A stretch of DNA of 60,000 nt from Amphiscolops sp. MND2022 (taxonomy: Eukaryota): positions 32,242,001-32,302,000 of the forward strand of contig OZ076409.1 of the NCBI GenBank assembly GCA_964187785.1. Direction: 5' to 3'. The first letter of the stretch is position 1; every line of letters begins with the position of its first letter. Positions 27,501 to 57,590 of this stretch are shown here, piece by piece. Below the pieces are notes generated by a model, which did no database searches, had not been told where the DNA came from, and was given only the letters and a program-made list of their open reading frames with translations. The position numbers and the translations under genes were made by a program.

Positions 27501-30500
27501 CAGGGAATGAAATCGCGATAGTAGTTGGCGAATCCCAAGAAACTTTGCATCTCCCTTTTGTTGCGGGGGATCTTCCAGTCACGCAACTTGGCAACAGCTT
27601 TCGGGTCTGACTTTACGCCTTCTGCGGAGACCACACGTCCCAGGTACTTTATTTCTGATTTCATGAAGTCACATTTGGCTACGCGCATTTTGAAACCAGC
27701 ATTGCGGAGGCATTCAAAGATTTCGCGCAAGCGCGCCATGTGATCTTCCACAGTTTCGGTCGCAATCACGATATCATCGATATAGGCCATCACCATGCTG
27801 CCTTTGCGGTTGACAATCTTCCGTAGCGCTCGCGCTATTGCTCGCTGGAAGGTGGCTGATGCATTGCACAGGCCAAATGGCATCCGCCGCCATTCGAAAA
27901 GCCCTAACTCGCAGGCAAAAGCGGTCTTGTGGCGATCCGCCTTTCGCACGGGAATTTGCCAAAAGGCTATGCTGGTGAAAATTTTGGCGTTGCCCAGCCA
28001 TGCCAGGCTTTCATCGATGCGAGGCAAGGGGTAGGCATCCTTATTGGTTACCTCATTCAACGGGCGGAATTCGCAGCAAAAGCGCAACTCCCCGTTTTTC
28101 TTCTTTACCATTACGATGCCACTTGCCCAAGGGGACAGTGAAGGCTGTATCATCCCCAAGACTAGCAGGTTTCGCACCTCTTGGTCGGCGCGCTCTGCCT
28201 TTTCAGGGGACATCCTACGAGCACCTTCACGATGCGGTACAGCCCCAGGCTCCAGCTCCACCGTGTGTTTGGCGATGGTGCAGCGGACGATGTCAGCCTT
28301 ATGCTTCATAAACAAATCATCGAATTCATTGAGAATATTGCCTAGAGACTCGCAGGCGCTAGCGCCCCACAGGTTCTTAACCTCTTGTAACTGAGAGTCT
28401 GGCCCAGGAATTGGAGCCATCAGCTCCAGATCAGTGCGTTTACGAACTTCGCGTTCCGAAAGCCCTGCCTCACTAGGATCTGTCGAGGACAAAAACTCAA
28501 ATTGTGATGAAGAAGTCAACTCAGAAGCAGTGGATAGATTCATTTCACTGTACACTTTATAAACAAAATTTGCACGACTGTTGTCAGCTTCAGTTTCTTT
28601 GCTGGCCTTTGTAGGGGGTTCCAGATTCTGGGGCACAGCCTGATACACTAATGTCACAGGCACTACGGTGCCCAGTTGAACACCGCACCGCACATGCTAT
28701 GGGTTGCTGGTAAGGTTTATCAAACTCACGTACAATGTTCCTGTCTCACTGACAGTGGCCACGCTGTCCTCTAAAAAGACAACATTTTGCAATAAAGGAT
28801 CAGAAAATGAGGCGTTGAGCGCCACGGTCTGAAAGATCAATGGTTCAAGCGAGTCAGTGCTGAGCTTGGCTCTTGCTACTGTGCGCTCGAAAAACTGTAG
28901 GACCAAGTCGCTATCCAAGGCAACCGGAGTAGCTAGCGAAGTGTCACCTACCTGTGCGTGTGCATGATGCCAGACGGGCTTCACAGGTGCTCGCAGGACA
29001 ATTTTCATAGAGGTGAGATCGACTAGGACCTGACAGGAACGGAGGAAGTTCCGACCTAGCAGGAAGTCCTCCACACCCTTTTCATCGTCCACCACGACAA
29101 AGTTGGTTTCAAGCTCGTACCCTCCCAATTGGAAACGAATTTGCTCTGCCAAACCAAAAGTCTTTATTGTTTTTCCATTGGCAGCGTACAAGTCGACTTG
29201 ATAGGGCTTCAGGACAGTACCGGTTCGGGCAGCCACTCGATTGAAGGCGGAGAACGTCAATATTGATACGCCGGAACCAGTGTCCACCAATCCACGCAGC
29301 GGGATGAGTGCCGCATGGGGCACGACGAAAGAGACAACGAGCGACGCACGCTCGTCTATACGTGCCTCACCAGTGGGCTCTTGGTGGTTGATGTTGTAAC
29401 ACTTCAGTTCTTGGGGACCCAGGCATAGGCCAGGTGGGAATACATCCACCACCACGCAGGCCTCGAACTTCACAAACAAATCATCGAATTCATTGAGAAT
29501 ATTGCCTAGAGACTCGCAGGCGCTAGCGCCCCACAGGTTCTTAACCTCTTGTAACTGAGAGTCTGGCCCAGGAATTGGAGCCATCAGCTCCAGATCAGTG
29601 CGTTTACGAACTTCGCGTTCCGAAAGCCCTGCCTCACTAGGATCTGTCGAGGACAAAAACTCAAATTGTGATGAAGAAGTCAACTCAGAAGCAGTGGATA
29701 GATTCATTTCACTGTACACTTTATAAACAAAATTTGCACGACTGTTGTCAGCTTCAGTTTCTTTGCTGGCCTTTGTAGGGGGTTCCAGATTCTGGGGCAC
29801 AGCCTGATACACTAATGTCACAGGCACTACGGTGCCCAGTTGAACACCGCACCGCACATGCTATGGGTTGCTGGTAAGGTTTATCAAACTCACGTACAAT
29901 GTTCCTGTCTCACTGACAGTGGCCACGCTGTCCTCTAAAAAGACAACATTTTGCAATAAAGGATCAGAAAATGAGGCGTTGAGCGCCACGGTCTGAAAGA
30001 TCAATGGTTCAAGCGAGTCAGTGCTGAGCTTGGCTCTTGCTACTGTGCGCTCGAAAAGCTGTAGGACCAAGTCGCTATCCAAGGCAACCGGAGTAGCTAG
30101 CGAAGTGTCACCTACCTGTGCGTGTGCATGATGCCAGACGGGCTTCACAGGTGCTCGCAGGACAATTTTCATAGAGGTGAGATCGACTAGGACCTGACAG
30201 GAACGGAGGAAGTTCCGACCTAGCAGGAAGTCCTCCACACCCTTTTCATCGTCCACCACGACAAAGTTGGTTTCAAGCTCGTACCCTCCCAATTGGAAAC
30301 GAATTTGCTCTGCCAAACCAAAAGTCTTTATTGTTTTTCCATTGGCAGCGTACAAGTCGACTTGATAGGGCTTCAGGACAGTACCGGTTCGGGCAGCCAC
30401 TCGATTGAAGGCGGAGAACGTCAATATTGATACGCCGGAACCAGTGTCCACCAATCCACGCAGCGGGATGAGTGCCGCATGGGGCACGACGAAAGAGACA

Positions 30501-30990
30501 ACGAGCGACGCACGCTCGTCTATACGTGCCTCACCAGTGGGCTCTTGGTGGTTGATGTTGTAACACTTCAGTTCTTGGGGACCCAGGCATAGGCCAGGTG
30601 GGAATACATCCACCACCACGCAGGCCTCGAACTTCACATCTACGCCGTCCATTGTTGCGTAGACTGGCACTGTGAAATACGTCGTCAGGGTTTCAGATTC
30701 TCCAGGGACGTACCACTCTCGGGGACGGGGCAACTCGACTCGCTTGTAGAGGATGGATAATTCAACCCAAAGCTTCGCTAGGGTTAACGTTGGCCTGCGC
30801 ACTTGTTCGGCGGCTAGCATCAGGTGGATAGAGATCAACGCCCGTCCTTGTGGGTCGAACGTGGTAGGTTCTAAGCAGGTTTGATCTTGCTTGGCACCGC
30901 AAGTGATTGTTAGCGGGGTGTGGAATGCTGGCGGTTCCGCCGGATGTAGCATTATTACGCGATCATCCTCCAGGGGTACCGTGTGTGCGG
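24584..30990 (-). pseudogene. pol: pol of B (PR duplicated, RT, RNase H, IN), disrupted
   Basis: LVDTGSG (twice), YPLPRI, MPFGL, YIDD, LDTDAS, NADGLS, HDAMGH..CLTC, QSDN, GLVER. Confidence 0.95.
28310..30637 (-). repeat. In-frame 1164-bp tandem duplication spanning the protease
   Basis: 28310-29473 vs 29474-30637 are essentially identical. ORFs recur at a 1164-bp period. Confidence 0.96.
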
Positions 30991-35994: not shown

Positions 35995-36012
35995 ATCCCT
36001 CTGTGGTCGCCA
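35995..36012 (-). promoter_or_regulatory. Primer-binding site, tRNA-Arg-like
   Basis: TGGCGACCACAGAGGGAT is complementary to a tRNA 3' end ...TCCCTCTGTGGTCGCCA resembling animal tRNA-Arg(UCG). Identical 18-mer in D. Confidence 0.8.
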
Positions 36013-36027
36013 AAAAATGAGTTTCCA

Positions 36028-36731: not shown

Positions 36732-37241
36732 GTTTTTCGCTGATTTTTTTGCCTTACACAATAATTGGTACCAATAATATTGAAATTAATGTTGCCCACA
36801 ATTATTTGTTAACAGCCCTGTATACTGCTGGCTTTCCATAAATAATGGTCGTTTTTAAACCCAGTGCCATGAATAATTTCCTTATATTTATGGCCATATA
36901 TACACTTTCCAATACCTGCACTGGGTACTGAATTCGGAGCTATAGATAGTCGCCGCTTATAATCGTCAGGCAAGCCTGAATAGTCCACTATCAGAGTCCG
37001 ATTGAAAGAAAAACTAACATGTAGTCTTCTGATAATGATCAAAGCCTCTATTCATGTAGATTCCTCTGCACTCGGCCAACATATAGGATGGTCGCTTTCG
37101 GCGTTGGTTAGTCTACAGTCATTTGTTATACCTTCATGCCTTTTGTATTCATACGCCGAAAGAAATCAGGTAAGTAATAGTGACTTTTTGAAGACAAATT
37201 TCATACTTTTACAGTTGAGGAACATTTTTCGAGGCAATTCC

Positions 37242-37876
37242 TGTAACGTCAGCCACTGGCATGACAAAATTTCGATGAAAAATTCGAATTGTGCGATATC
37301 GAAACAGAAGAATCAAAATGGCCGAACTAGCAGGTACGAAAAAGAATGAACAAAAAGAGAGACCACGCGGAGATCGAGCAAGAAACCGAGCACGTGTGAA
37401 AAAGTTGCAGAAAAAGATGAAGAATTGCCAGAAGATGAAGAAACATCAGCAGAAAGATGTTGTGGAATGTTGTGCCATCTCCTTGGGAAATCAACAACAT
37501 CTGCAGAGCATTGCCAGAGGCAAAAATGGATGATGGACTGAAAACTGTAACGTAACTGGGGACTATCCCCGTTTTTCTTTAATATTCCCCCTTTTTCTTT
37601 GGAATATTTGGATGATGTATGACCTTCCAGGTCTTTTTAGATCTTATTCATCAAATACGATGTTTTCCAGCTAAATACTGTTTTGACCTCGGAAGAATGT
37701 AGGAACTCGTAGGAACGTTAGGATACGTTTTTACAGGCTTGTGGGGCGTGTCCCCCTAGGAGACCATTTTGGGATCAAAAACTAGTGTCTAGGCATGTAG
37801 TAAGTCAACTGTCTCCTGTTTAAGCATCCTAGGCATTGTCCCTGTCCTAGATGTGCGTCGCTAGCCGGTCGTTACA
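37242..37876 (+). repeat. 5' LTR of D (635 bp, ~72-bp internal deletion)
   Basis: TGTAACG...CGTTACA termini, followed by spacer and PBS. Confidence 0.93.
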
Positions 37877-37892
37877 TCTGGAATAGTTTTTA

Positions 37893-37910
37893 TGGCGACC
37901 ACAGAGGGAT
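37893..37910 (+). promoter_or_regulatory. Primer-binding site, tRNA-Arg-like
   Basis: TGGCGACCACAGAGGGAT, same as in B. Confidence 0.8.
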
Positions 37911-40577
37911 AATTTTCATTTTGCGTACAAGTAGGATCAACTTCTGCCTTCCGGCCCTGTTAGGTCCGGATCTTGGAAAAACTCAGGGGAGGGTCCTAGA
38001 TTATTTTTATAATCTTTTTCCAGCCCTCTGGGTTTTGTACTAGTATTGTTCCTGCGTTTTTTGCATATTTTTGAAGTCTATCTAGAGAAATTAACAGTTT
38101 CTAACAGTGTACCCCCTTTAACCTTACCAAAACCTAATGAAAAAGCTATTCCGGCCTATCCGGAACGTGTTTTAAAGGGTTTTCTAGCTCATTTTCAGCT
38201 AATTTGCAATGTATGGGGACAGAGAGGACGAACACCGAAGGTTCCCACTAGCTGTGATGACGTGGTGACGTCCTACACGACTGCTCCTCCCACGCCCCTG
38301 TGATTGCTGTATACCACGTCAAACGGGTGAAATTGGCTATTTTCTTAATTTTACGGCCCAAAAAGACTATGCCCAAGCCACCTATTCCCATTATAACTAA
38401 CTGAGAAAAATACCCAGAGGGTATTCAGATCAGTTGTTAAAAAATTTGAGCTCGAAAACCTTGAAAATAACTCCATTTATAGCTCAAATACCGAAATTTC
38501 CGATTTTGAAAGCCAATATTCTGCCAAATAGAGTAAGGCCAGTGGTAATACTGAAAAAAACGTTCCGATAGACCCACTGGGTCAGGAACAAAAAGTTTTG
38601 CGGGGCCATTTTTCCAAAATAGCAAAAAATTCAGCGATTTTTGTTAAAAAATCGTCAAATTTGGCCATTTTGACCCAATTTGACGAGGGCAAAGCCTTGG
38701 ACGTTAGCTTCCAAGCTTCCGAATTCGCCCAAAAATCTTTCTTCCTAGCTTGGTAGTACGAGACACTACTACCAAGTTGTTTCCTAAGGTTCCCCAATAG
38801 AAATTGAAACTTTAACTACTTGTTTCTTTCAATACACATAGACCCGAGTAGAGGACCCCATAGACCTGAGAGATATAACATCAAAAATAATAACTGAACG
38901 AACCCCATCCCCATTAAATAAGTTGTCACGCTTTCTTACAATACTATTGGAAGAATTTTGAACATCCAAGAACCGATAGACAAAAGTTTCTTGACGAAAA
39001 CACGTTATTTCAGTGTTGTTCCGAGAGTGTAAAAAGTGCACATAAAAAATTTTTTAGAAATCCAATTTGGAACCTACCAGGTTTCGCTTGCTTAATTTTT
39101 GTTAGTAAAAACCCTCACGTTGCAAGTGCAGAAAACCGCGAGCGATTCCAACCAGTGGTTGCCGAGAAATTGCCAAAAACGTGAGATTTTAGTGACAATT
39201 TCGGAATATTGGTATAGTGTTCCAAGAGCAGGTCGGAATCTTTCGCAGCACGAGCAGCTCAAAACGAATTACACCATCGTGTTGACCGCCAAAAGTTACG
39301 TTACTGGTGTAATTTTCATTGCGCTAGCACTGCTAGTCCTCGAGAAATCATAACCGCGGTTTCGCTCAAAAAGTGTACGAAATTGTAGTAAAAATTGAAA
39401 TTTAGTTGAGCATAGTGCAATACCTTGCAGATACCCCAGCACCAAAAATCTTGCATTTTATTACGCACGGCACTAGATCCCGACGATTTGTGCAATTTGA
39501 GCAGCCGGCTCCTAGCCAAAGCGGAGAAATTGGCATTTTTGTGAGTTTTGACCCGAAAAAGTGATACCCCTGGTATATCAAGGTTTTGTCATTTCGGATC
39601 ACTGCATATTGATTCAGACACCTCGCCGCCGTATTTTTCGGTTACGTGGGCAAAAGTTACGCTCGCCTGCAAATTTTCAGGTGGCTGGGACGTCTAGATG
39701 GCGAACTTGACCACTTTTTGCGAATTTTACGACATAATCAAATTTTCAAAAAACATTGTTAACCGTAACGTCCATAGAGTCAATTTCTGTACAATCGGCG
39801 TTAAACTTCCAACGATTCAGCTAGTGTACTATATGGTGTGAAATTTTTAAGTTGCTACGAGTCCTGGAAACATTTTCCACCCTTTCCAGACGTGCCAATC
39901 GACGACAAATTCACTGATTTTACGAAAATTGAACGGAAAATTCTACACTTTCTGTCCCAAACAACCTCCAAACGGACCTGAAAATAACCCCTCCATAAAC
40001 AGAATACCCTCTGCGTCTCCGATTGAGTCTTTTTTCCATACACACCCCCAAATCCCATCCATCCCACCGTACCTGAATCCATAAATCGAGAAAACTCAGT
40101 GAGAAACAATTTCAACTAGTCGAATGAGCGCATAGCCCTAAAACTAATTGGACCAACACTATTCATTCCAGTCAACCACTCCTCAACTCAATAGGCCCTT
40201 CCACAGCCTACCCGATTAGCCAGCAACTCGTAAACAGTCAAATCAATCAAAATTTTTGTTTTAGTGTAAACCTAATCCTCTCCACTTAGCGGAGACCGGG
40301 ATGAAAACTTTAGTTGATCTTAGAACGTATATTACCACCAGCCCAATTACCGAAGCTAGTAAAAAAACCTTTTTGTTAACCTCGGTCCCAATCAAAGTGA
40401 AATGGTCCCATTTAATACTTGTCGTTTCTCGTGTTGAAGTTCCACTTGCCGCAATTCATACCTCTTATCATTCGTTGTCCTTTCTTCCTGGAGGGAAGGG
40501 TGAGACAAATAACTCCGTCAGTTAAAAAACCTCCTTTTAAATTATAATTGAATTCCATACCTCAAAAATTGGCCAAA

Positions 40578-40782
40578 ATGGACTGGGACGTACCCGAAAA
40601 CCTCCAAGCTACAGTTCCATTTGGTAGCATGACAGAAAACACTACTCGATGGGAGACTCTTGCTGACAATCTCCAAGAACCAACCATTACAAATGTATTT
40701 TCAGAACTCATGTCTGACTGTATTCCCAACGCAGAACAAAACACGGAGATGAGAACCGCAGCCGAACAGCTCGATTCGTCGC
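40578..40782 (+). pseudogene. gag: gag N-terminal fragment of D
   Basis: MDWDVPENLQAT...AAEQLDSS matches ORF 57159..57611 of C. Confidence 0.85.
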
Positions 40783-40850
40783 TAGCCGGTCGTTACATCT
40801 GGAATAGTTTTTATAAAAACAATTCCAGATGTAACGACCGGCTAGCGACG
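40777..40850. repeat. 74-bp near-perfect palindrome of two U5 ends plus spacer
   Basis: 37-bp arms, one mismatch, no loop, centre at 40813/40814. Confidence 0.95.
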
Positions 40851-41546
40851 CACATCTAGGAAGAGGGACAATGCCTAGGATGCTTAAACAGGAGACCGTT
40901 GACTTACTACATGCCTAGACACTAGTTTTTGATCCCAAAAAGGTCTCTTAGGGGGACTTTTCTGACGTCGAAGGAGGCTTCTCAAATTAGAGCTCCGAAG
41001 CGACGCGCCGGCACTCTCAAAGTCCGGACACGCCCCACAAGCCTGTAAAAACGTATCCTAAGGTTTCTAGTACGTTCCTACGAGTTCCTACATACTTCCG
41101 AGGTCAAAACAATATTTAGCTGGAAAAAATCGTATTTGGTGAATAAGATCTAAAAAGACCTGGAAGGTCATACATCATCCAAATATTCCAAGGAAAAAGG
41201 GGAATATTAAAGAAAAACGGGGATAGGCCCCAGTTACGTTACAGTTTTCAGTCCATCATCCAAATTTTGCCTCTGGCAATGCTCTGCAGATGTTGTTGAT
41301 TTCCCAAGGAGATGGAACAACATTCCGATAATCTTTCTGCTGATGTTTTTTCATCTTCTGGCAATTCTTCATCTTTTTGTGCAACTTTTTCACACGTGCT
41401 CTGTTTCTTGCTTGCTCTCCGCGTGGTCTCTCTTTTTGTTCATTCTTTTGGTACCTGCTAGGTCGGCCATTTTGATTCTGCTATTTCGATATCGCACATT
41501 TCGAATTTTTCATCGAAATTTTGTCATGCCAGTGGCTGACGTTACA
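40830..41546 (-). repeat. 3' LTR of C (717 bp)
   Basis: TGTAACG...CGTTACA termini with adjacent PPT at 41547. Confidence 0.94.
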
Positions 41547-41560
41547 TCCTCCCCGGGCCG
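41547..41560 (-). promoter_or_regulatory. PPT of C
   Basis: Minus strand CGGCCCGGGGAGGA, identical to A. Confidence 0.8.
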
Positions 41561-42095
41561 TAGTTTGTCGTTATCGGCAATTGAGAGGATGCTCATACCC
41601 AGAGGGTAACAGCAATGCTGAGAGTCTGTTGATTACCTAAGAAAGGTTTCGCTTTTTTCTTACTTGTTTCCTGTCAACCTCCAAATTTTCCGTCACTTTC
41701 TGGTGTATTAGTACTTGTCAGTTTTACGATAACTCAAAATGTTCGACGAAACTAGAATCACGACAGGCAATTTTAAAGTTTTCTTGCAGTTTTCACTGGT
41801 TTAAGATAAAATCTCTTTTCTAGGAAGTATCCTTGCACTTCTCAAGTAACAACATTCAGGTCTTAGTAGTAGTAGTTAATTACCAAATTGGAGAGGGTGG
41901 GCACTGGCTCAGGGCCCACCCACATAGTGTAGTTTAACTAAAATTTTAGGTACATAACAAGTTTTGCTTAGGAACTCAGTGTACGTAGCACCAACTAAAA
42001 TGAAATGGTCTATAACCATTAAGATAAAGTTGTATTCGTTTGAGAGTGAGTTTGGCTTTCATTTGGTGGACGATTCAGCATTGGTTAAGGCTCTT

Positions 42096-45000
42096 TCACT
42101 CATTATTCTGGCTCTGTTGCGAGTCAAAAACGGATGATGTTATTGCTGACTCCTGGTTAGTAGACGGTTCCGCCACTAAGGGAGGATACTGCATGGAGTC
42201 GTCGATGGTGAGCAAATTATTCAGCTCTGAGTCTATATCAGCGTCCATTTGTGATATTCCCGTCTCGGGTTCATCTCGGTCAGGGGTTGCTCCGTCGGAT
42301 AACGTGAAATTATCTTCAGTCATTGGTTCATCGTTGGGCTTTATGGCAACGGGTAGATTCTCCTGATCTTCCTCCATTTGGGTCTCAGTTATTTCTGAGG
42401 GTAACCCACTGGATGTTGTCTGCTGTGAGCTGCCAGGGGCAGCCGCATTTGTTGCGCTGTTTTGGTGGGTGGTGGTTTCCTGTGGGAAATCGGGTAGGTT
42501 GTTGGCTAATTCTATATGACCATACTGCATAAACAAACTTTTGAAGATTTGGATTCCACGAGCATAGTCTTCGCCAACAAAGTCTCATCGTTCTTTCTGT
42601 CTGCTGTGTAGATATAAAAATTTTTCCAGCGCAGCGCGCGGAATATTGGGGACGATTGTACTGATTGGCAAAGCTTTTCTGTTCTGTTCTTTGGCCACCG
42701 AGGGCGTCTTGGCTTTCATGCGCAACGACGTCTGGTGTATTGCGAGATCCACTAAGTCTGGTTTTGACCAGCATGTTGTCATGTCTAGTATGCGAGCTGA
42801 GTGTGCGCGGGGACTAGTTCGGTCACTATACATTCGTGATGTGTCGCATATATAAGGGTATCGTAATTCGCTGGGTTCTTCCCCTCGCTTTCTGCCGCCC
42901 AGTCTCCGAACTGTGGTAGCTGTAACCCTCAAAATTACTTCGGCATTCCAATCCGTAAAGGAGTCCGCCCCGCCTGTACTGAGGTTCAGAGAAGATGTAG
43001 CCACGCAATTGGATGGAAATCCATTGGCATTGGGAGGGCGGATCGCGCATGTGCCTTTATGATGGAGGTAAAGTTGTGCTCAACTTGCTTCTTGTCTTTT
43101 ATAACCGTGTAGGCCATGGGCGGTCGCAGAGATGTAAAGCTGGCTACTACTCTGTGGTAGGTGGGATCCGGCTGGAGTCCATCTGTCGTTACGAAGTGCA
43201 ATATGGAGAGGGTGGGGGTGTTTGCCGCCATACGTAGGACTTGTGGCGGATATCTGAGTGCCATGACTGCACCAAAGATTGGCCAGACTATGGGAGAGAT
43301 TAGATGCATTAGGTCTTCCGTCTCCACTAACATGAGAGTGGCAAGTTGTGTGGGAAATAAGAAGCCAGGAAATTGATTGGGTTCTCTGTTGATGGCAGGG
43401 TTTGCATCCAGGGGATGCAATATACCCGCAACGTTGGCCCAGGTTGAGTAGATCCAGGTGAGGATAGCTTTGATAATGAGTTCTAGTTGTTTCTTCAGTT
43501 GTAGGGGACTCGCTGGGTCCAAGGCGCATAAAATTGCTTGCAGCCAACTTTTCTGATTCTGGGCGTACACCAGGTAACTGAAAAGCGACAAGTTTCCTTT
43601 GTCAAAGATTAGTTTCTGGAGCACACCTGAGGGTCCTTTATAGACTGCGTGCATGCCGACAGCCATTAGATACGCCAAAATTTCACTTATGGTGGCTTTC
43701 TGCATCGCTCCCACGTATAGGCGCACTTGCTGGTCGTCGAGATTGAATTCGGCCTGGACGAAACTAGGGAGCCAGAATGGGGAAATGTTGTACAAGAGTA
43801 CAGGGACTGGAATTTCTAGTCGCAGGGCGACTTGATTAAGGGTTTCATGCTAGGCTTGGTGCCAGGTTTGATATGTGTGCCCGGGTTCTATTTCGATTTG
43901 TTTTGCCAGGTCTCGTGTCATCACTACTAGGAGCGTCAGGGTGAGGGATGCCATCTCGAGCTTAGCGTCTATTGCTATCTCTGCTATGGGGATTACAGTA
44001 GTGTTGGTTCGCTCTGCCTTGATCATCTCTGTTTCTTTGAAAAGGGCTAGCAGCTCCTTATGAAATTTCGGATCGTGGGTTTTATCATCGCGGGTGGATT
44101 CGTCTCTTCGTTCGTACCAGTGGTTATCCACCAGGTGCTTCCCCTCGTTCTCATTGGGGTCATTTACCTTGCGTACCCCATTCTCGTCTAAAGACCTGAT
44201 CGACATTTGCATCCCATAGTCGTAGGCCGTCGCCTCGTCCACCAAGAGTTGCGAATTGCCTCGGTATCCTGTAAACCCTTGAACAGCTTTAGATACTTCT
44301 GCTAAGAAGGCTGGATACGACGCTTCGCAGGGACGCCATGTTGTGGCGTTGATTCTCAGGTTCGGTGCCACGATGTAAAAGTGCAAATCCCTTGCGTAAG
44401 ATGCTTCTAGCACCAAATACAAAAATTGTTGCAATGCTTTTGGGAGATGCATATACCCAGGGGGTGAGACAAACACGGTTCCCGTATTTGGCTTCTTGTT
44501 CTTCATCGTTGTGGCAATGTTAGACATCGTTTCCACGTATGCCACAACTTCGTCTGTGATGAATCCTTCTGTGTATCGAGTGCTTTGCATGTCGAAATAT
44601 CGCAATGATCCTCGCAGGGCGAGGTGGGCAATCACATTTGAATACACTAGGATTGGTGGAAGAGGTATGGTTTCTGCCGCCGCTGGCGTGAAGAATTTGT
44701 CGGTCACCTCCGCCATCTCGCTGAGCGTGGTGCAGGGCATATTCATCAATCTAACATCAATCAGAGTATTACTTGAGTTGTATGAAGATTTGATGGTCGA
44801 GTCAACAAAGAGAGCGATTCTTGTCTTTTGCAATAAGTCGTTTCCCATTGGCAGCAGGCTGATGGGGTCCCTCGCGTAGTTCTTCGATTGTAAGTGATTC
44901 TCCCCAAATCTCCCAGGTCTCTGACGAGTGAGTCGCTCAGTCAATGGTTGTAGTGGTTGCAGGTACGTAGAGTTACTGTTCTGCAAATCCCCCCTGAGAC

Positions 45001-46259
45001 GTTCGAACCATGGTGGGACTCCTCCATCATTGGTAAATATCGGTGGCTTGACTGGCCTGGTGTAGACTACTCCAATGTTGGCCCTCTCTATAGTACGCTG
45101 CGTGCTTTGTTCCCCTTTGCTGTTAGCGCTCGCAAACTTTTGTTTTGGGGGATTTTCTTCATCGGGTGTACTCGGTACTTCGCGTTGGAGACGCACTGCG
45201 TCTCTCGCCGCTATGTCTAGTTGTTTTAATTCAGTTGCAGTGAGCAGCTCTCTGGCTACTTTTTGTCTTCTGGCTTCCGGTTGACTGGGGGATGGCGCTG
45301 GTATTCCCCTGTTTGATCTTGAGCTAGTTTGCTTGTCTTGTTCTTAGCTCTTTTCGCTGCGTTTATTTTATCGCGAAGGTCTATGGGAGCGTTGTTGCTT
45401 TTTCTTTCTTCCCGCTGCTCTTCCCTTTGGCGCTCTTGTAGTTTAGGGTCCTTTTGGAAGCCTATCAGCTTGCTGGGCTCATTTCGGGAGGGTTTGGTGT
45501 TAGATGTGGAGGTGTCAATTCTTCACCGGAATTTTGAAAAGTGACTGTTCTGGTTGGGCGACTTTCTTTGGCTTGCTCTTGCGTTGTTGTTTGGTTGGAT
45601 TCAGTAAGGCTCACTTGCACCCCTCCCCCCTGAAAGGTAGAAGGAAGCATGAAGCTTGAAGTGGATTGTGTAAGCGAGCGGACGCCCACCGATGCCAGAG
45701 GCATAGGTGGTGTTAGGATTGGAGGTGATACCAAGGGTAGGGTGCAGCTGAAAGTTGTGGTTTCGGAAGGGGGGAGTTGAATCACAGTTTGTATTGGTGT
45801 AGGCTGCGGTGCTTGGAATAAAGGTTGAATCGTAGGGGGAGAGATTCTGAATGACCGTTCTTGATCCATTGGAGGCCTATTAGGTTCTCCGTAAAGCATG
45901 TGGGAGCAGTGATCGAATAAATTATGAGTTAGATTATAACCATGCCAAATGCCATCACGGAAAGTAGCGGAACGCTCAAGCGGCCCGATACTGCTAGTAA
46001 TGGTCAATAGGACCTCTGGGTGCGCTGCTTGCGCTTGCATTTGAGCAACGATCATGGCAAAGCCAGCGATCATGATGGGGGTGGCCCCATCTTGCAAAGC
46101 TTGTTGGACTAAGGCTAGCTGGTCCATTCGACCATTAACCTCGCCCACCGACGGAAGAATGCTGGAAGAAGTAGCACGTTGTTGGGGAGATTGCTGATTG
46201 CTTGGTGCAGGCATGCGGTTACGTGATGAGGGGTCCATGGCAGGTGAGTTCGATAGCAC
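42096..46259 (-). pseudogene. ORF3 of C, ~1390 codons, SGNH-like domain, disrupted
   Basis: ORFs ending at 46259, 45196, 43795, 43004 and 42536. Motifs RIALFVDST, YSNVIAH, FVSPPG, APNLR..WRPCEASY. Confidence 0.8.
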
Positions 46260-46283
46260 GGATGAGGAATATGATAATCATTA

Positions 46284-48093
46284 CAGTGCACAGGCAAGCT
46301 TTTTGCTGCTTTTCGTGGAATCCGGGACACGAAAATTGAGAAAAGACGTGGAATCCAGGACAAAATTTCTCTTTGATGTTAAGCGTGTCTTGGATTCCAC
46401 GACAGTGCTTGTCCTGGATTCCACGCCAATACTGCTGCTATAATGACACTTTTGCAGCTGCTCTCTGATTGGTCCGCTAATTTTGAGTAATCATTTTAAA
46501 TTGATTCAATTTTATATCAAAGGAAATTGTTTTGATTGACACGAAAAATCCAAGAAGTACGAATAGAGATACTCGTAACTGGTACCAAAAATGAAGCATG
46601 TCATCGATTAATGGCAGATTGTGATGATCTGGCAGTTTGTTCAAAACGGTACTAAACTTGAAATTACGAATATTTGTGTAATATAACCAAGTGAGAGCGA
46701 AATGACAAATAACAATTCAAACAAATGGTAGTTTAGCATAATTTGCCCAATTTTGAACTCAAGTGACATTTGTATGACTGCCATGTTATTCAAAAACAGA
46801 AACAATGCAAGATCAGTCAATAATTTCGTGAGACCAGGATCAAACTTTGTGACAATTTGTGTCCAAAATTATTCATGATTAAATCCACCTTTGAATTACT
46901 TTTTTAGCCGAATTTCGTTGCTATTAGAAGCCAGAGGGACGATATGTCCATAATATTTTTCGTGAGCACAAAAAGGAGGCCTTTCAGTATACTAAAATGA
47001 AAAAAAAATTTTGTGATATTTTGGTCCCAATCGTGAGTAAAAAAATTACTCACGATTGAGACCAAAATTAGTCATGAATAATTTCATTTTTGAATTGCAT
47101 TTTTAGCCAAATTTCGTTGTTATTAGAAGTCAGACAGTTAAAATATGTCCCTAATATCTTTCGTGAGGACAAAAAGGAGGCCTTTCAGTATACTAAAATG
47201 AAAAAAACTTTGTGATATTTTGGTCCCAATCGTGAGTAAAAAATTACTCACGATTGGGACCAAAATTAGTCATGATTAATTTCACTTTTGAGTTGCATTT
47301 TTAGCCAAAATTTGTTGCTATTAGAAATCAGAGAGACAAAATATGTCCATAATATCTTTGGAGCGAACAAAAGCCGGCCACTAGAACTGCTAACAAATCG
47401 AAAGTGTACCATTTCATCAAAATCTGCCAGTTTTCAATAGTAAGCCAGATATGAATAAATGTCAGAATATTCTAAAACGTCATTGAATTTTGAGCAATTT
47501 TTCCATGACACTAGTATAGAATATCAAAATTTCATTATTGACGTACAATAATACAGTCAGAATTAAATATTAACGTACTATCTACCCCCTTTGGTAGTTG
47601 TTTTCTTACAGTTTAAGATATGTATATGGTTTCCACGACACATGTATAATGATATGGTCTTACTTTCCACAGTCGCTTCAAAAGCCGAATTTTGTGTGAT
47701 ATTGGTGTGATAGTCTGAATCATTTTGAATAAATATACGAAAAGTAGTGCATGATATTATGTTTGTTCAGTCTTCCATTTGAATTTAATTAAAGAAGAGA
47801 TGCCGCGTATCGCGTCGAGCATAAAAAGTCGTGGAATCCAGTAAATTTATGATTTCTGCAATCTGATTGGTTCATTTTGCGAAACTTACGTTTTTGTGGA
47901 ATCCGGGACACCGCTGCATGCCGACAGTTCGTACAGCTAAGCATTTGTTACTGGAATCCACGACAAAATCCGTGGAATCCGGGACAAATGACGTAATTTG
48001 CCAATTTTGCACGGTTAAAGGTACGGTCGTGGAATCCGAGATATTGAAAGCACTATGTTGCGCTTTGAGCAAATAAGGCTTGCCTGTGCACTC
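46284..48093. mobile_element. Non-autonomous TIR DNA transposon (1.8 kb) nested in C
   Basis: Terminal inverted repeat AGTGCACAGGCAAGC / GCTTGCCTGTGCACT flanked by TA. Subterminal GTGGAATCC(R)GGACA arrays at both ends. AT-rich, no transposase ORF, absent from A and B. Confidence 0.85.
46846..47360. repeat. ~200-bp tandem repeat (about 2.5 units) with internal hairpins
   Basis: CAAAAAGGAGGCCTTTCAGTATACTAAAATG and CCAAAATTAGTCATG recur at ~200-bp spacing. Confidence 0.85.
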
Positions 48094-48165
48094 TAATGAT
48101 ATAGGAGAAAATGAGTGATGGTGCAATCTGGGGTAGCTGCGCAAGGGCGAAGCAACATGACAAAA

Positions 48166-48183
48166 CTGAAAAACAAGTTATAC
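48166..48183 (-). promoter_or_regulatory. Putative splice acceptor for ORF3 of C
   Basis: Minus strand GTATAACTTGTTTTTCAG, positionally equivalent to the site in A. Confidence 0.45.
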
Positions 48184-48414
48184 ATGAACATAAAGAAGGT
48201 GTATGAAATACGCTAAGGGAATTAAGAAAGAAACTTGAAGGGTTGAAAGTTAAAAGGGAAAGGAGTGGCTGTTAAGAAAGATTGCAGTTGTATGGAACGC
48301 AGTCATTAAAAGTTTATGGATCAACTCGCGCGTATTGGGAGAATTAAAAGGGTAAGTGGGGAAGTAGACATGAGAAACAAGAAGGGCGGGCCGCTGGCCT
48401 GCGTTCAAGATAAC

Positions 48415-50274
48415 TCAATTAGCATTGATATCAATAGAAGAAATTGATGTAATCAAAACGTAGACTCTGTCGTGGAGTATTATTTCTAGGTTTGACCCGA
48501 AAAAGTGATCTCGGAGCGTGGTGTACCAAGTTGGTATGAGGTTGATCGATCGTTCGGGGTCATAGATGGGTATGTGGATTTGGGAGATTTCGTATTGATG
48601 AAGCTGGTGTTGGAGGTGAGTGAGGCATGTGTGAAGAATTTCGTGCAAGAGTGGGTGTTTATTTGAGGCTCTGGTGCACAAAAGGAAGATTTGGTTGTTC
48701 CAATGTGCGGTGTGGGAGTGTTTCAAGCAAACGGCAGTGCCAACTGAAGGTTTTAAATGGAATATAGCTTCCTGTCCATATTCGCGAACGATGTATCGAA
48801 TAGTTGCCGATTGGGATTGTAGGTCGGCGGGACAACACAACACTAATGTGCCGGAGGCTTGTAGAATGTCCGTATCAGAGTAAGTAATCCATGGCAAATG
48901 GTTTGGGCGAATTTTCGGTTGCAATATGAGCCATTTCCCAGTGTCCTCTTCATGATCATCTAGGGGTTTCGATGTCAAGTGTCCAAAAATCGCTCTGCGA
49001 TCCTCCCATATAGTGCGATGCAAAGGACGGTTGCCCATGTGTATGCACGACCAACTGTGCATGATGGAGAGTGCTTCTAGGGTGGACATGGGCGTGTCGG
49101 GAGTGTATGTTAATCGGTCGAGTATGCAAATTTTCGTTTGTCGGCAGAATATGATGACTATCAGTTGCAGCCAGTGTTGGCTCAAGAATTTTCCGCGGTA
49201 TATGTCAGCTAGTTGAAAACATAGGGTGTCGCTTGTCTCCACGAGAGCGCGTAAGTTCTCTAGGCATAGTAACAACGTAGTAGGTGAGACCATTGAGGAA
49301 TCATCGAGGGAGGTGATCAGGAGCCACCATCCTGCGGATGGTTGATATACGTCACCCGGAGGGGAAGCGATGTGGTAATTGTTCCATAGCTGGTTTGCAG
49401 TAATGCAGCGAATCATCAGGGGGTTGCTGCATGTGTTATCTAGTTCACCGAACCAGAATGAGGGTGGTAGAGGGGGAATGGTTGGTGCCAATGTGAATTC
49501 AAGTCAACCTTTTTCATGGCTTGTCCATTCCTTGAAGCGATATGTTGGACAATTAGAAGGAGAGAACTTGTGCATTTCTTTCAGCGTGGTTTCTAGAGGT
49601 GGTACAAGTCCAGATTCAGTGCTGGCATAAGTCTTCTCGATGGTCAGAATTATATGTCGGATGGTTGGTTGGGTTTTGGGTTTCTGTTGTTCCGCTCGTA
49701 CAGTTAAGATTTCGTGTTGAGGGTGGTTGTGCGCTCGTGCTAGCGTGAGTTCGCGAGCCGGAATTGCTTCTCCCCGGGCCAATTGTATATTCGGGAGTTC
49801 CGCAGTAACTAGTTGGATGCAACTACAGTTACGGGAACCACAGGTTCCGCATCTATATCTGGGCGCTCGGTTAGCTCGGAGTTGATAGCGTGGCGCTCGC
49901 CTGGAAGCATCATCGAGTGTGTTCGGTTGGGTAGGGTTTGGGCTCTCAGGAATTTCCGGGAGAGTCATTGCTCTGTCATGTATTCTGGGTGGGGCTCTAG
50001 TGGAAAATCTAGTCCTTGGGCCTCTTCTAAGTCGTGTGATTGGTTTTCTAGAGGACGTAGTGGTTCAGCTTGAAGATGTGGGTAGCTGGTTCCGGCGACT
50101 AGGAGGCCTACCCTTTGGTCGACCTCTCCTGTTGGAGGTTCTAGGTGGTGGATTTTGATTTGCGATCTGGTTGTCAAGGTCGACATCGGGTTCTTGTGGG
50201 TCAGCCGTTGGAGCTGGGGGAGCTGATTGATTGGGGTCTCTTGTTTGTGGGTAGAATAGAGGGAAATTGCTCAA
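48415..50274 (-). pseudogene. Post-integrase Pol extension of C, including a 358-aa open segment with both macrodomain-like repeats
   Basis: RRGRPKGRP, CGTCGSRNCSC and ITYSDTDIL..LVLCCPADL..KPSVG..IFLLCTR..IHIP..W..F..LEIILHDR. Confidence 0.72.
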
Positions 50275-53200
50275 GGTCAGCTATGATGGCTATGTTTTGA
50301 TCCGGTCCGAAAGGTTTGTGAGTAGTCCAGTCCCAGTGGGCTGGTACGTGTTTCTTTAGTCTCTCATAGTGAACTTTTTGACCCTTATCTAATACATAGA
50401 GGCGTCCGTCTTGTAGTACGTCCGTAACTTTGTGGGGTCCGCGCCACGCGCGTATGAGCTTGCGAGTGCTACCTTTGGGTATTATGTGACAGAACACCCA
50501 GACAGCGTCGCCGACGGCGTGCGCTTTTGATTTCAGGTGGCGGTCGAATTTTAGCTTTTGTCGAAGCTGAGCTTGATGGGTGTTTCGTCGGACTAATTCA
50601 TGGATTTCTTGTTGTCTGGCCAATAAGTGTTCTACAAATTCTTCTTTGGAGTCAAAGCCTCGTGCTGCGAATTCTGGGTATATGAACGATAATGGGATGG
50701 ATTTTTCTGCGCCATGTTGGAGCATGTATGGTGAAAATCCCGTGGTGGCGTGTCGAGTAGAGTTGTATGCGCCAAGGACTCCGTCGATATGTTCGTCCCA
50801 GTCCTGCATCCTGCGCGACGTGTAGACTCGAAGTAAGGTGAGTAGTGTTCTGTTCTGTCGCTCTACGAGTCCATTACCTCTGGGGTGTGCCGGTGTTGAA
50901 GTAACTTTAGTAACCTGGGAAGCTTTCATGAGTTCTTGGGCTATTTCAGCTGTAAAGTTTGTTGAGTTGTCGGATTGCATTCTTGCAGGAGTGCCATGTC
51001 TGGCAAACTATTTGTTCAGGATGATTCTTGCTGTGGTTTGCGCGTCATATTCGTCGTGGGCGCATGAGACAGCTTCTGCGAATTTGGTGAAGTGATCTAT
51101 TATTACTAAGAGGCCGGTGTTGCCTGAATCAGTTTTGCAGAGTTTCAAGTGATCAAATTGAACCAGATCATTGAAGTTGCTACTGTTTATGCTCTGCAGG
51201 GGGTAGCAAAGATTTCCTGCTGCGTGTTTTGCTTGCTGGCAGGTCAAACATTGTTTGATGTGATTCACTACGTCTCTTTTGATGCCCGGCCAAGTATGTC
51301 GTTCTTGTATCCTTGCTAGCACTTTTCCTACGCCTTGATGTCCTGACTCATCGTGCGCTCGGTACAGGATTTTGTGTTGGAAGAGTTGTGGCATGACGAT
51401 CATGCACGGACGTACGTGCAAAGCACGTTGTTGAGGGACGTAGTTGACAAAAAGTATGTCGTCAGGATTTAGGAAGAGTAGATCTTTCTTTTGGTTATAG
51501 TACCTTTTGGCGAAGTCCTGCACTTCATCAGGGAACCTTGAGTCTTCTAGCGTTTCGTTCTTCATGAGCTTCTTCAGTGCCAAAAGGTGTACGTCGCTGC
51601 TTTGGGCCATGCGTAGGTCTCGTAGACCGTATTTGGTTAAGTGGTGTTCGTGTAACTCCGTTCCAATGGTTCTTAGAACATCAGCTTGTTTCTGACATTC
51701 GGCGGGAAGTGCCCCTAGAGAGTCGGGTCTGGCTCGGTTGTGTCTATTCGTGCCGGGGGCACTCTTGTGGTGATGCTCAAAATTCGGTTCGGTCGTTCGT
51801 CTTCCTCAAGAGTCGGTGTGGTTTCCTACTGGATCTCAGGATACCAAGGAGTGCTTCCTGTTGATTCTTCAGGACTTTTGTTCCTTTGCTTCTTCTGAAG
51901 GTAGTAGGTACAGTAGAGGTACAGTCGGGCTCGGGCTTCCGGAGGAAGTTCTGGATGATTTGGAATTAGGTGACCGCGCTTGTCGATGTATGGGATCGTG
52001 GGAAGTTCGTCATAGTATTTCTGTGACATGAAATTGAATCCTTCGCCCACTTCTGGTAGCTTTTCAAGGATTTGTTCACGATTGGTGTAGTCGTTGGTGC
52101 GCTTGCTAAGTCCATCGACGTTTCGGTGTTGCGTACGCGGTCTGTGGATGGTTTAGGCGTGCGATTCAACGACCAATCATGGCTTGGTCCATGGAGTAAG
52201 TTTTAAGCCATGATAGGGCTTGATTATCCACGCGAAGCGTGAATTCTGTACCTGCTAGGTATGAGTGGAATTTCTCTACGAAGTAAAACATTGCATACAT
52301 TTCCAATTTGGGGGCATCGTAGTTTAATTGGGTCTTGGTCAGTGATTTGCTACCGAAAACGATCGGTCTCAGGATGGTTTTGCTGTTGTATTCTTGTTCT
52401 TGGTGCAGAATACCCGCGATTGCTACTGTACTCGCATCTGTGTCTAGCACGAACCGTCCTTGCTCATTCGGTGCAGCTAGGGTGGTAGCGTCGGCTAAGG
52501 CTTGTTTCACCGAGTCGAAGGATTCTTGGTGTCTTTCCTCCCAACAGAAGTGTTGATTTTTCTTCAACAATTCTTGCATGGGTTGTACCTTGGCGGCGTG
52601 GAATGGGACAAAATCGCGGTAGTAGTTAGCAAATCCTAGGAAGCTTTGAAGTTCTTCCTTGTTCCTGGGAGGTAACCACTCTTGGATTTTTGTCACTGCT
52701 TCTGGGTCGGGCCGTATTCCCCCAGCGGACACTAATCGTCCTAGATATTTGGTTTACGTGCGCATAAAGTCGCATTTTTCCGCTCGCATTTGAAGCCTGC
52801 CTCTCTGAGACATTCGAATACTTCTTTAATTCTCATGATGTGGTCTTCGATTGTTTCGGTTGCAATTACTATGTCGTCGATGTAGGCCATGACGACACTC
52901 CCATGTCTTTGTTGGATTTTTTGTAAGGCTCTTGTGATGGATCGTTGGAAGGTGGCGGATGCATTGCATAGCCCAAAGGGCATACGTCGCCATTCGAATA
53001 AACCTAGTTCGCAGGCAAATGCTGTTTTCCTTCTGTCGCGTTTCTTCAGAGGTATCTGCCAAAAGGCCCACGCTAGATCGATGCTTGTAAAGAGTTTTGC
53101 GTTGCCAATCCTGGATAGACTCTCGTCTTTTCTGGGCAGGGGGAAGGCGTTTTTTACTGTTACGTCATTTAGTGGTCGGAGGTCGCAACAGAAGCGGAGT

Positions 53201-53835
53201 TCGCCTGTCTTTTTCTTTACCTATACTATTCCACTAGCCCATGGCGAGTAGGAGGGTTGAAATAAGCCTAAAGATAGGAGGTTCCTTACTTCTTGATTGG
53301 CTTTGGCAGCCTTGTCGGGGGACATTCGTCTTGCGCCCTCCCTGTGGGGGATAGCTTCCGGTTCTAACTCAATACGATGTTTTGCTATCGTACATTTTCC
53401 TATGTCGGCCTAATGTTTCATAAAAAGGTCGTCGTACTGGTTTAAAACTTCTGCTAACTGATCTCTTGCACCCTCCCCCCAGAAAGAAAGGACAGAGGAT
53501 AGGTCAGGTCCTGGTATTGATTTTAACAGTTAGGGATCGGTTTGTGCATGTTTTTCATTTTCTGACACTTCCTCTTCTGACAACTCAGTGGATGACAAAA
53601 ACTTTTGGGCGAAGGAACTAAACTCACTGCTTGTATCACTAAAATTAATAGTACGAATATTATTAACATGTTCTACAAGAGGCATGAAAGTTCCATTTGT
53701 TCGGTCAACTGTAACCGGTTCGAACATAAAGACGGTAGGCTCTGCCTTGCCGAGGACAATTTTACTTGGAATCTGTAAGTTTTCGTTAGCTGTTTTGTTT
53801 CTTATGGCGAGGTACACTGCGCCATCTTCTCCCAC
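50201..53835 (-). pseudogene. pol: pol of C (RT, RNase H, IN), disrupted
   Basis: MPFGLCNA, YIDD, LDTDAS, HDESGH..CLTC, QSDN, NGLVER. Confidence 0.95.
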
Positions 53836-56800
53836 TCAAGTCAAAGTGTCTTCTGAAACAAAGGCACTTCGGTTGTACACCCCGCTGGGGCGTATCATTA
53901 CTTTGCGGAAACGGTATTTATTGGGGTCCTGGGTAATGACTTGTGCTCTAACTAGTTTACGTTCAAAAGGTCCTAGTACAACCATTTCGGTAGAGACTAC
54001 TAAAGAAGCTTCATGGTCACTAACCTCAAGGACTGGTTTAAAATGGCGTGGAGATTTTGGATCTCGGATGATGACTCTCATTGCAGTCAGGTCCACGAGG
54101 ACATTATAAGTGCGTAAAAAGTTGCGTCCTAGAAGGAAGTTTTCAGCTCCTAAGTGGTCTGTGATGACTATGAAGTTGGTCTCCAGCGTGTGACCACCCA
54201 ATTGAAAGTTCACATCTTCAGCAATACCGACAGTGGTTATGGTCTTGCCGTTGGCTGCGTACAGCTGGATGTCATACGGCTGGAGACTCAATGAAAGGGC
54301 GGATGCTATCTTTTGGTACGCGGCAAGAGAGAGGATAGAGACACCTGAACCAGTGTCGATCATACTGTATAAGGGAATGGGTTCTTGGAGGTCATTGCCA
54401 AAGGCAACCACCAATGATGCTCTTTCGTCGATGCGAGCTTCCCCCTGGGTGTCTTGTATACCAAGGTTGTAACACCGTAACTCCTGGCGGCCCAGGTAGA
54501 GTCCCTGTGGGAAATAACCTTCTAGGACTACAATGGCATCGAATTTCATAACTACGCCATCTATGTTAATTGCTACTGGGACGGGAGAAATTGTTTTCAC
54601 TTTTTGAATCGGCGCTAACTTGGTCTCGTCGTCGCGGGTGAAGTGCGGTAACGGTCGAGCGGCGATTGTGTATTTAGTGTTTCTACACAGTTCCTCTTTC
54701 AATTGCGCTAACGTTAATATGGGACGCGATTTTTGTTCGGCAGAGAGGAGTAAGTGTATGGAGATGAGTGTCTCGGTGCAATCAGGGGCGGGTGCTTCCA
54801 ATGTGGTAAGCACTTGTTTTTCGCCGCAAGTAACAATAATGGGGTGAGACGGGCCTCCTGCCTCTGCAACTGAGATTACTCTGACTTGATCATCTTGTTG
54901 GTCGCCATCTAACTGGTTGGTATACGGAGCATACCATGCTGCCCTAACTTGTTGTTCTTGTCTGGGATGTTCTGGGGCCATACATTCTGATGCAAATGGT
55001 TCAGTGCATCCGCAATTGATGCAGAAGGCAACGGTTCCTTGGATTGGCAGAGATGCTGGGTGCATTTCGTTATTCACCCCGTGTGGTTGCGATGGGCAAG
55101 TCCATCCACCGGATGGGTTCGTGTGACATGAATTCACTTGTTGCTGCATTGGTTTTAGTGCGCGATCTTTCAGTGGACAGTCGATCACAAAGTGTGATGG
55201 GTCACCACAGTTAAAGCATGCTCGTTGGGGTTGTTGCCTATAGGGTGCCTGCTGTTGAGGTGGCACTTGTTGAGGTTGTTGCATTGGCGGTGGAATTGCC
55301 GGGGGCAATTTTGGTTGTTGGTTTAGTGGTGGGGGTTGTGGTTGTTGAGGTTGAGCCATTTGATAATTTTCTGAACGATTGGAACCGCGCATGCGCAAGT
55401 ATTGCTGGACTGTGAAGCGAAGCGTTTCTACTGTCGGTGGTGTTTCAACGTATTGTTCGTGTGCGTACATGAGGGCTAGGTTCCGTTTCAGTTCGAAATT
55501 GCGATTGCCTTCGATGAATTTTTGCATAATTTCGTATCTGCGAACAGTCATTTCCTCGTTGGGGTAGCCTTGGCTACGCAAACCTTCGAGGGCATCGAGG
55601 TATTGCATATAGTCCTCCTCGTTGTTCTGGTTGCGGGTCCTGAACTGTTGTTGTATGTGGATCTTACTTGACCCAGTTCCAAATTGCCGCGCTAGCAATG
55701 CAAAGACTTTTTCGTCGGTGTCTCTTTCTGCCTCGGATTTGTTGTTGATGTAGTCTCTGGCCTCGTTTTCTAGATATTCAATGATTGTCCAGGTTCTGTC
55801 GAGGGGACTGGCTTTGGCATGTGCCTTCTCCAAGTGACGCTTCATCAACATCATCCAGCCGTCGGCGTTGCAGTCCTTTGTTCCTCGATATTTCGTCGGT
55901 TTATTCTTCGACTCTTTCGCCGCTAGCAGCGGTTCCAGACCCTTGGACATTGCGGTCGAAATGGCTTCAGCCAGTGCTTGCCGTTGGCTCGTTCTTGGGG
56001 TGTCTGGGGTTGCGCTTGGCGTTGCAGGAAGCTGTTCCATCTCCTGTTCGTCTTGTTCCAGAATTCGCTTAGCGGTAATTTTTCGCTGCGTACTGGTGGC
56101 CACTGGTCGTGGGACCAAGATTAAGTACGTCTGTTTGGGAGGGTCACTACTTGTGTTGGTTTTAAGGGTGTAGTAGTTTGACTCTCTCGTCGTCATTCCA
56201 CTTGCAGGAGAATAGTAATCTCCCGTTGTAGATGCACCACGAGCAAATGGGTCGAATGATACGCTAGTTAGTGGGTCCGTACCCACATCGCAAGATTCTG
56301 CTCGGATCACTCTTGCTATCTTGCTGGTACGTGGTTGATCTCTTTTGTAGATTGCGGGCGGCAACAATTTTAGAGGTTTGGGTTGTTCGATGTTGGACTG
56401 TGCCACCTTTCGGTAGGTAGCTTGCGTTGGGTGTGGGGCCCCGCTAGTGGAGGGTATGTCGCTGGAGTGGCAGGTTACCGGCGCCGCTGGCTTCGTTTTG
56501 GTTTGGGCTGCTGCGGTTTGTGCCGTCATTGCTCTCACTCCTAGTGTTAGGTCTTTCATCGTGGTCATCAAGTCTATCAATCGAGTGTTTGCGTCATTTT
56601 CTCTGCGCTGCATGAGGTCTGATATCATTCTCATTCGTTCGTCAGCTTGACGATCTCGCTCTTTCATCACGGCTGACATTTCCGCCATGCGGGTGTCTGC
56701 CATGTTTTCTCTTTGCTTCATCAAGTCAATCAGAGAGGCGATGGATGCTTCCAACCGTCCTTGATTCTGGCGTCCTTCGGCCTGTATTTCCAACAGGCCC

Positions 56801-57590
56801 CTTCGCATGTCATCCATATCCCTCATGATGACGTCAGCTCTCATTACATGTTCGGTGTTTTCTCTTGACAGTCGTGAAATTACTTTTGAGAGTTGAGCCA
56901 GGCTGTTTCGGAAATCTTCTCTCACGGCTTGCGACTCTTTTATGATTTTCGTAACAGTTGAGTCCGGGGCCGTTTCAGCGCTAGTTCTCGAGTTAGGCGT
57001 GTAGTTTTTTTTGCCAGTTCCTTTTGGAGCAAGATTTGAGTTTATTCATGGGGGTGTTCTAAAGACGTATCGCAACGGGTTGTCTTCCATTTGCGTTGAT
57101 GGATTGTCGTTCGATTCAATAGGCACCGCTGATGGCTCTCCCTCTCGTGGGTAGCCGCTCAAAAAGGGATTTCTAGTTCCGCTGTGCGGGGGGCCGCTAC
57201 AGGAGTTGCATGGTTGCTACTTTGTGATGCCGTAGCTTCGGCTACACTTGTTTCGCGTTTTGGTTTTTTATTTGAGTTTGGCCACTCCTCTAGACTGTAG
57301 TCAGTGACTTCGAGGGGTGGCCACGCATTATTTCGTGTGGTATTTTCGGTACCATCCACTGGATTGGTACTATCGGGGGAAGCTTGCGACGAATCGAGCT
57401 GTTCGGCTGCATTTCTCATCTCCGTGTTTTGTTCTGCGTTGGGAATAAAGTCAGACATGAGTTCTGAAAATACATTTGTAATGGTTGGTTCTTGGAGATT
57501 GTCAGCAAGAGTCTCCCATCGAGTAGTGTTTTCTATCATGCTACCAAATGGATTTGTAGCATGGAGGTTTTCGGGTTCGTCCCAGTCCAA
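53836..57590 (-). pseudogene. gag-pol: gag-protease of C. The 1029-aa open frame 53836..56925 shows gag and pol in one frame.
   Basis: Coiled-coil-like N-terminus, capsid-like region, CFNCGDPSHFVIDC, MIDTGSG..LGRNFL. The start codon is TTG here where D has ATG. Confidence 0.92.

Follow-up and report, generated by a model that had tools for sequence, protein, structure and literature searches.

Two right-hand ends of a Ty3/gypsy retrotransposon family are fused tail to tail at positions 40777-40850 of the window (the whole 60,000-nt stretch of DNA that was analysed). Each end still carries the complete 16-nt spacer that separates the LTR from the primer-binding site (PBS). The centre of the resulting palindrome is best explained as a cDNA end. 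The junction is a real feature and represents a known kind of cDNA end-joining in a new form; it is also a single event in one dead copy. It is informative on a U5 extension of 15-16 nt, while the origin of the junction as a dimer is not proven by it. The surrounding window consists of a nest of large, decayed Ty3/gypsy elements, here called A, B, D and C, with the following features bearing on the junction.

15907-16610, plus strand: 3' LTR of element A
36731-36028 and 17765-17049, minus strand: 5' LTR and 3' LTR of element B
35995-36027, minus strand: control from family B, 15-nt spacer (36027-36013) and PBS (36012-35995) following the 5' LTR
17049-17765, minus strand: control from family B, 3' LTR ending at CA without the spacer
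37231-37241, plus strand: left flank of element D, source of the predicted target-site duplication
37242-37876, plus strand: 5' LTR of element D (635 bp)
37877-37892, plus strand: 16-nt spacer of element D, between LTR and PBS
37893-37910, plus strand: 18-nt tRNA-type PBS of element D, common to family B
37911-40786, plus strand: leader and first ~70 gag codons of element D (ATG at 40578), ~95% identical to C
40777-40786, plus strand: microhomology joining D gag to U5 (6 nt exact, 9/10 nt)
40777-40797, plus strand: left arm, final 21 nt of U5 with CA as the terminus, identical to the end of D's 5' LTR
40798-40813, plus strand: left arm, whole 16-nt spacer, identical to D's spacer at 37877-37892
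Between 40813 and 40814: centre of the palindrome, at the PBS boundary (±1 nt)
40814-40829, minus strand: right arm, 16-nt spacer kept past C's 3' LTR, with 1 difference from D's
40830-41546, minus strand: 3' LTR of element C (717 bp, TG...CA)
41547-41560, minus strand: polypurine tract (PPT) abutting C's 3' LTR, the same motif as ahead of A's 3' LTR
41547-60000, minus strand: internal region of element C, gag-PR-RT-RH-IN and extra 3' ORFs, decayed, exceeding the window

The original prediction had described a tail-to-tail fusion of two U5 ends at this position, and the sequence confirms it. The interval is a palindrome without a loop, whose 37-nt arms differ by one mismatch (40806/40821). It is the longest of its kind in the window, where the next-best zero-loop palindrome has an arm of 10 nt; across 30 shuffles the best arm was 9-14 nt. 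Folded as single-stranded DNA, the same interval gave a z of -14.6, which was equalled by none of 200 shuffles. Each arm had been claimed to comprise the U5 end and the entire 16-nt spacer and to stop at the PBS boundary, and this holds to within ±1 nt. The left arm together with one additional base (40777-40814) is identical at 38 of 38 positions to 37856-37893, the interval in D that covers the U5 end, the spacer and the first base of the PBS. The right arm is formed by the terminus of C's 717-bp LTR, and its proposed derivation from a PPT-flanked 3' LTR stands as well, with the purine tract directly ahead of the LTR at 41546-40830. Because the base past the spacer is the first PBS base, the position of the centre is ambiguous by 1 nt on each side. 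The letters at the centre would be identical after blunt joining and after an overlap of 2 nt (AT), and given the 1-nt ambiguity, they are also equal with or without a retained terminal base derived from the tRNA.

The interpretation of the centre depends on where the PBS begins and on what normally happens to the spacer. The PBS of B and that of D are identical over exactly 18 bases, beyond which the two sequences diverge at once; the spacers are 15 nt in B and 16 nt in D, and no BLAST match was found between the LTRs of the two families. The boundary is fixed by this PBS common to two families, and 18-nt sharing of this kind is, judged from the letters, the layout expected of a tRNA primer site. 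Its length and TGG start fit a tRNA, perhaps a tRNA-Arg; tRNA genes within the window numbered 0. As in retroviruses, a cDNA whose synthesis starts at a tRNA primer contains the spacer at its right end. B's 3' LTR stops at CA without its 15-nt spacer, indicating from this one clean control that the spacer is normally trimmed, and supporting the earlier expectation that C's 3' LTR should lack it. D's spacer was not found after A's 3' LTR, a comparison made with D's spacer and not A's own. C's 3' LTR keeps the spacer to its final base. Given that the spacer is normally lost and is kept here, the centre would mark an unprocessed cDNA right end, and the claim that the junction supports a long U5 extension is thereby borne out.

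The same observations bear on whether the junction could have arisen by chromosomal rearrangement only, in which a shared-LTR tandem first supplied C's 3' LTR with a spacer and a PBS, and the PBS boundary was later hit by chance in an inversion or a fold-back. Shared-LTR tandems are common according to the accessible text of PMC5932611, and several tandem duplications and microhomology-type deletions are present in the window. However, by a simple count only ~3 of some 18,000 positions per element match the observed centre, the PBS remnant is at most 1 nt, and no short inverted repeat is available to nucleate a fold-back, given that the self-complement at the PBS boundary of the intact 5' junction is only 1 bp. 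We consider such an origin very improbable.

The family of C and D is assigned to Ty3/gypsy by its PR-RT-RH-IN domain order, the same as that of Ty3, and by its TG...CA LTR ends, the PPT preceding the 3' LTR and the PBS past the 5' LTR. Ty3 is also the closest solved structure to the RT-RNase H of an intact relative (E 5e-106), and the named relatives among the 120 matches listed in the RT search are only 35-41% identical. Compared to Ty3, the elements here stand out by their size of ~18-20 kb, their additional 3' ORFs and the 15-16 nt that separate the LTR from the PBS. Pol extends several hundred residues beyond integrase in C (48415-49503, minus strand), A (9756-10954, plus strand) and B (23054-24345, minus strand); the final part of this extension gives a weak Macro-domain lead (atlas score 0.89) and returned no match in a Pfam search. 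An extra 3' ORF is conserved in C (43850-45343, minus strand), A (12196-13629, plus strand) and B (19837-21264, minus strand). Its named atlas neighbours are weakly esterase-like (NXPE4_C in 12% and PC-Esterase in 16% of members), and we would guess at an SGNH-like fold. No envelope protein was identified.

The four elements alternate in orientation, and sequence unique within the window comprises 438 bp between A and B (16611-17048) and 510 bp between B and D (36732-37241). D starts exactly at TG and has a flank that is unique within the window, while the 5' LTR of C lies outside, at an estimated ~64.2 kb. Element B, the only one with both ends in the window, has LTRs that are 2.8% apart and no target-site duplication (17049, 36731), and this region has therefore probably been rearranged. 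D's LTR is without 72 bp that are found in C and A, with a 4-nt microhomology at 37750-37753, and D's leader has ~136 bp that are absent from C (40434-40569). Between pol and the 3' ORFs, C is interrupted by a 1.8-kb TIR element with internal ~199-bp repeats (46284-48093), which is probably a DNA transposon of the non-autonomous type. Tandem duplications occur in gag or pol of A (204-4091, three copies of 1,292 bp, ~2% divergence), B (28304-30638, two copies of 1,164 bp, 2 differences) and C (56053-60000, two copies of 3,324 bp, 0 differences over the 624 nt within the window), and these could be real or assembly errors. If the near-identical duplications of C (0/624 nt) and B (2/1,164) are such errors, the junction might likewise be an artefact of assembly or of a long read folding back. 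We regard this as extremely unlikely, since the symmetry ends at 37 nt and contains a mismatch, the two sides beyond the arms are different copies (4.0-4.6% substitutions plus indels), and neither a centre at the PBS boundary nor an end at a microhomology would be expected of an artefact.

For the history of the junction, we modestly favour end-joining of two cDNAs U5 to U5, insertion by their U3 ends and the later loss of ~15 kb from the D arm via microhomology. Priming by a tRNA 16 nt from the LTR end would give a linear cDNA whose right end consists of U5 and a 16-nt tail, and the layout of the sequence suggests that this tail is normally removed at integration by a presumed enzymatic step. 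Two untrimmed right ends would then have been joined by host repair, in a putative ligation that was either blunt or over the 2-nt AT overlap, to produce a U5-to-U5 inverted dimer with its centre at the position seen in the sequence. The dimer would have been inserted via its two free U3 ends. With ~18 kb per arm, such a palindrome would be unstable, and ~15 kb of D would have been lost, presumably afterwards, leaving an arm of 37 bp. As a variant of this account, D may have been deleted already in reverse transcription, with a minus strand of ~37 nt jumping early onto gag. At the breakpoint, U5 contains bases that can pair with the PBS, and speculatively a nascent strand of this length might pause there and jump. 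The bases in question (37856-37862 in D's U5, complementary to the 5' part of the PBS at 37893-37899) lie at the junction microhomology, and the complementarity is weak in B.

Transgene concatemers, in so far as the available portion of PMC8701086 describes them, resemble the proposed dimer in that linear DNA molecules are ligated tail to tail and then stabilised by an asymmetric deletion. In that account, the asymmetric deletions that stabilise perfect transgene palindromes usually remove little sequence and destroy the symmetry at the centre. In the present case, retrotransposon cDNA takes the place of transgene DNA, the symmetry at the centre persists and the loss of ~15 kb is one-sided. 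This unlikeness to the transgene palindromes, so far as that text covers them, would count against the dimer, as would the fact that there is one event only.

The loss from D can be further evaluated from the microhomology. The left arm joins gag at CGTCGC, as had been predicted, and the match extends to 9/10 nt overall. A microhomology of at least 6 nt was found at 920 of 500,000 random junctions. The U5 end has 102 six-mer matches in 18.7 kb of internal sequence. When the last 40 nt were compared to that sequence, only 11 matches reached 9/10 or better, or about one per 1.7 kb, and the site used is among them. A site of this kind fits a search along a long arm better than a local patch. The local patch belongs to a nested one-ended insertion, in which D is the older element, C entered D gag in the opposite orientation via its U3 end, and the untrimmed U5 end was patched. 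The patch would be inverted and 37 nt long, derived from a hairpin that had opened or from a short product of minus-strand synthesis, and would have annealed at the microhomology in gag. We consider this history, which the original prediction did not include, unlikely. Nested insertion would produce a junction sequence identical to that of the dimer and would retain the cDNA-end origin of the centre; moreover, nesting is common here, as with the 1.8-kb TIR element within C, and six-mers of the U5 end often recur in the internal sequence. On the other hand, it requires either a zero-loop hairpin or an additional short molecule, priming of a fold-back at the intact 5' junction would depend on a self-complement of only 1 bp, and a 9/10 match at the frequency given above is unlikely to lie beside a fixed insertion site.

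Whether one cDNA molecule or two contributed to the junction is a separate question, and the original prediction had noted that the left arm matches D's own spacer. The identity is upheld by the 38 matching positions, but as an argument for two molecules it is weak. Substitutions between D and C amount to 4.0% in the LTR (plus 7 indels relative to C's 3' LTR) and 4.6% in the leader and gag. Against two intact relatives, C has 6 in-frame stops in 1,859 and 8 in 1,933 well-aligned codons, with codons lacking well-aligned flanks dropped (unfiltered, 14/2,551 and 12/2,795), corresponding to a decay of 2.6-3.4% on the C branch (95% CI 1.0-6.6). This stop-codon clock is rough, given that for B it yields 0.6% with filtering (CI 0.07-2.2) and 1.9 stops per 1,000 codons (~1.5%) without, compared to the 1.4% expected from B's LTR pair. 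At 2.2% per branch, the probability of exactly one change in 37 nt is 0.37. Because the decay of C can cover all of the D-C divergence, the spacer variant does not separate two molecules from a single end that folded back, and the spacer allele was rejected as proof of two cDNAs. These comparisons allow D and C to have started out identical when they were inserted, and their divergence is compatible with co-insertion followed by decay.

If D and C did start identical, a single cDNA inserted by its U3 end could also be considered, with its U5 end closed as a hairpin, replication converting it into an inverted duplication and a subsequent break repaired at the microhomology. A hairpin would yield a perfect centre. 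We know of no enzyme step that closes the U5 end of a retroelement into a hairpin, which counts against this account. In addition, clamping by reverse transcriptase over a 2-nt duplex requires C or G, as stated in the accessible part of PMC3035444; the overlap here is AT, and a clamp of this type is thus disfavoured. We judge a single hairpin-closed cDNA quite improbable.

The joining of two untrimmed ends, which we prefer, has its nearest counterpart in 2-LTR circles, where, to the extent described in the consulted text of PMC13332604, junctions preserve unprocessed ends and an extended LTR end lowers 3' processing in HIV. As far as that source goes, the two share host ligation of unprocessed cDNA ends, with the ends recorded as reverse transcriptase left them, and here the full spacer is kept in both arms. 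By the same partial description, the circles are intramolecular U3-U5 joins, episomal and with few extra bases, whereas the present junction is U5-U5, inverted, has 16 + 16 nt and lies in a genomic contig. A 2-LTR circle junction as such was rejected, as the head-to-tail U5-U3 polarity is absent and both arms are inverted U5 ends. The inverted tandem of Rover in Drosophila, as reported in the portion of PMC5932611 available, likewise brings together the termini of two inverted copies of one LTR family, and arose by double insertion, with a 6-nt palindromic target motif between processed ends. Double insertion was rejected for the junction here, where the 32 nt between the CA ends are the spacer and the inverted spacer. 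A shared-LTR tandem array was also rejected, the orientation being inverted and at most 1 nt of PBS following. In a literature search that covered few subscription journals, the text returned held no description of genomic U5-U5 fusions with a retained spacer, and the sole match to "U5-U5", in the part displayed, concerns RNA packaging. Supplemental Table S2 of PMC5932611, which lists LTR-LTR junctions, may bear on novelty. Searches of metagenome contigs gave 0 matches to the junction pattern and 0 to the LTR-PBS pattern. In viral contigs, 59 loci fitted a pattern of this type; all of them are versions of a single stretch that has no BLAST match to the window, and we therefore take them as chance.

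A possible reason for the existence of the spacer comes from a complementarity between its 3' part (37884-37891) and the LTR.

37777-37784, plus strand: LTR segment complementary to the 3' part of D's spacer, starting 116 nt ahead of the PBS

In B, the counterpart at 36128-36121 pairs with 36021-36014 (minus strand). In B and D alike, no complement between spacer and LTR is longer than 8 nt; the 8-nt one begins 116 nt ahead of the PBS and lies in register 114, and 4 of its 8 pairs have changed on both sides between B and D. An 8-nt complement is by itself common (2,071 and 2,661 of 20,000 shuffles), and 3 of 20,000 paired shuffles matched in register to within ±2 (1.9e-4 in the all-against-all comparison); this register was spotted by eye and tested post hoc in two families only. 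Spacer-LTR complementarity in one register in two families is what is new here, at p about 2e-4 (post hoc). Folding without constraints did not produce the pairing (z -1.29 in D, -0.84 in B). When the PBS was blocked, the pairing appeared only if the RNA started 116-120 nt before the PBS, at a probability of 0.25-0.5 in B and 0.06-0.2 in D, and stayed at or below 0.08 for the longer 5' ends tried. C's variant spacer base breaks one of the spacer-LTR pairs, which hints that this base is a derived change. The register also predicts the spacer of family A from 16512-16519.

In Tf1, the PBS lies several bases from the LTR. The "pretzel" leader of Tf1/sushi elements resembles the arrangement here in that sequence adjacent to the PBS pairs with the LTR, and those elements self-prime, according to the text accessible for bioRxiv 10.1101/2022.12.06.519325 and PMC4600332. 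The present case differs from Tf1/sushi in comprising two families with unalignable LTRs and a common 18-nt tRNA-type PBS. Self-priming of the Tf1 type was rejected: the U5:PBS duplex is good in D, where 31 of 2,000 shuffles equal it, but not in B (626/2,000), despite the common PBS.

Tentatively, and with considerable doubt, we propose that in a clade of very large Ty3/gypsy elements the spacer is retained for pairing to the 5' region of the RNA during priming, so that integrase would have to cut 15-16 nt from U5, with slow trimming, blunt U5 ends and recurrent U5-U5 dimers as possible consequences. The usual trimming by integrase at a U5 end is two or three nt. If this is true across the clade, dimers inserted by two U3 ends would be a recurrent source of inverted repeats and hairpin RNA in this genome.

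If the junction is what we take it to be, it would be a genomic record of a replication intermediate, revealing the start of reverse transcription and a 16-nt cDNA tail in a family that nobody can assay directly. In families with a very short spacer, nothing recognisable would remain of the same event. Under this reading, two questions would become testable: whether an extension of this length can be removed by a gypsy integrase, and whether long extensions bias a family toward U5-U5 inverted dimers, which may be a source of rearrangements and silencing triggers.
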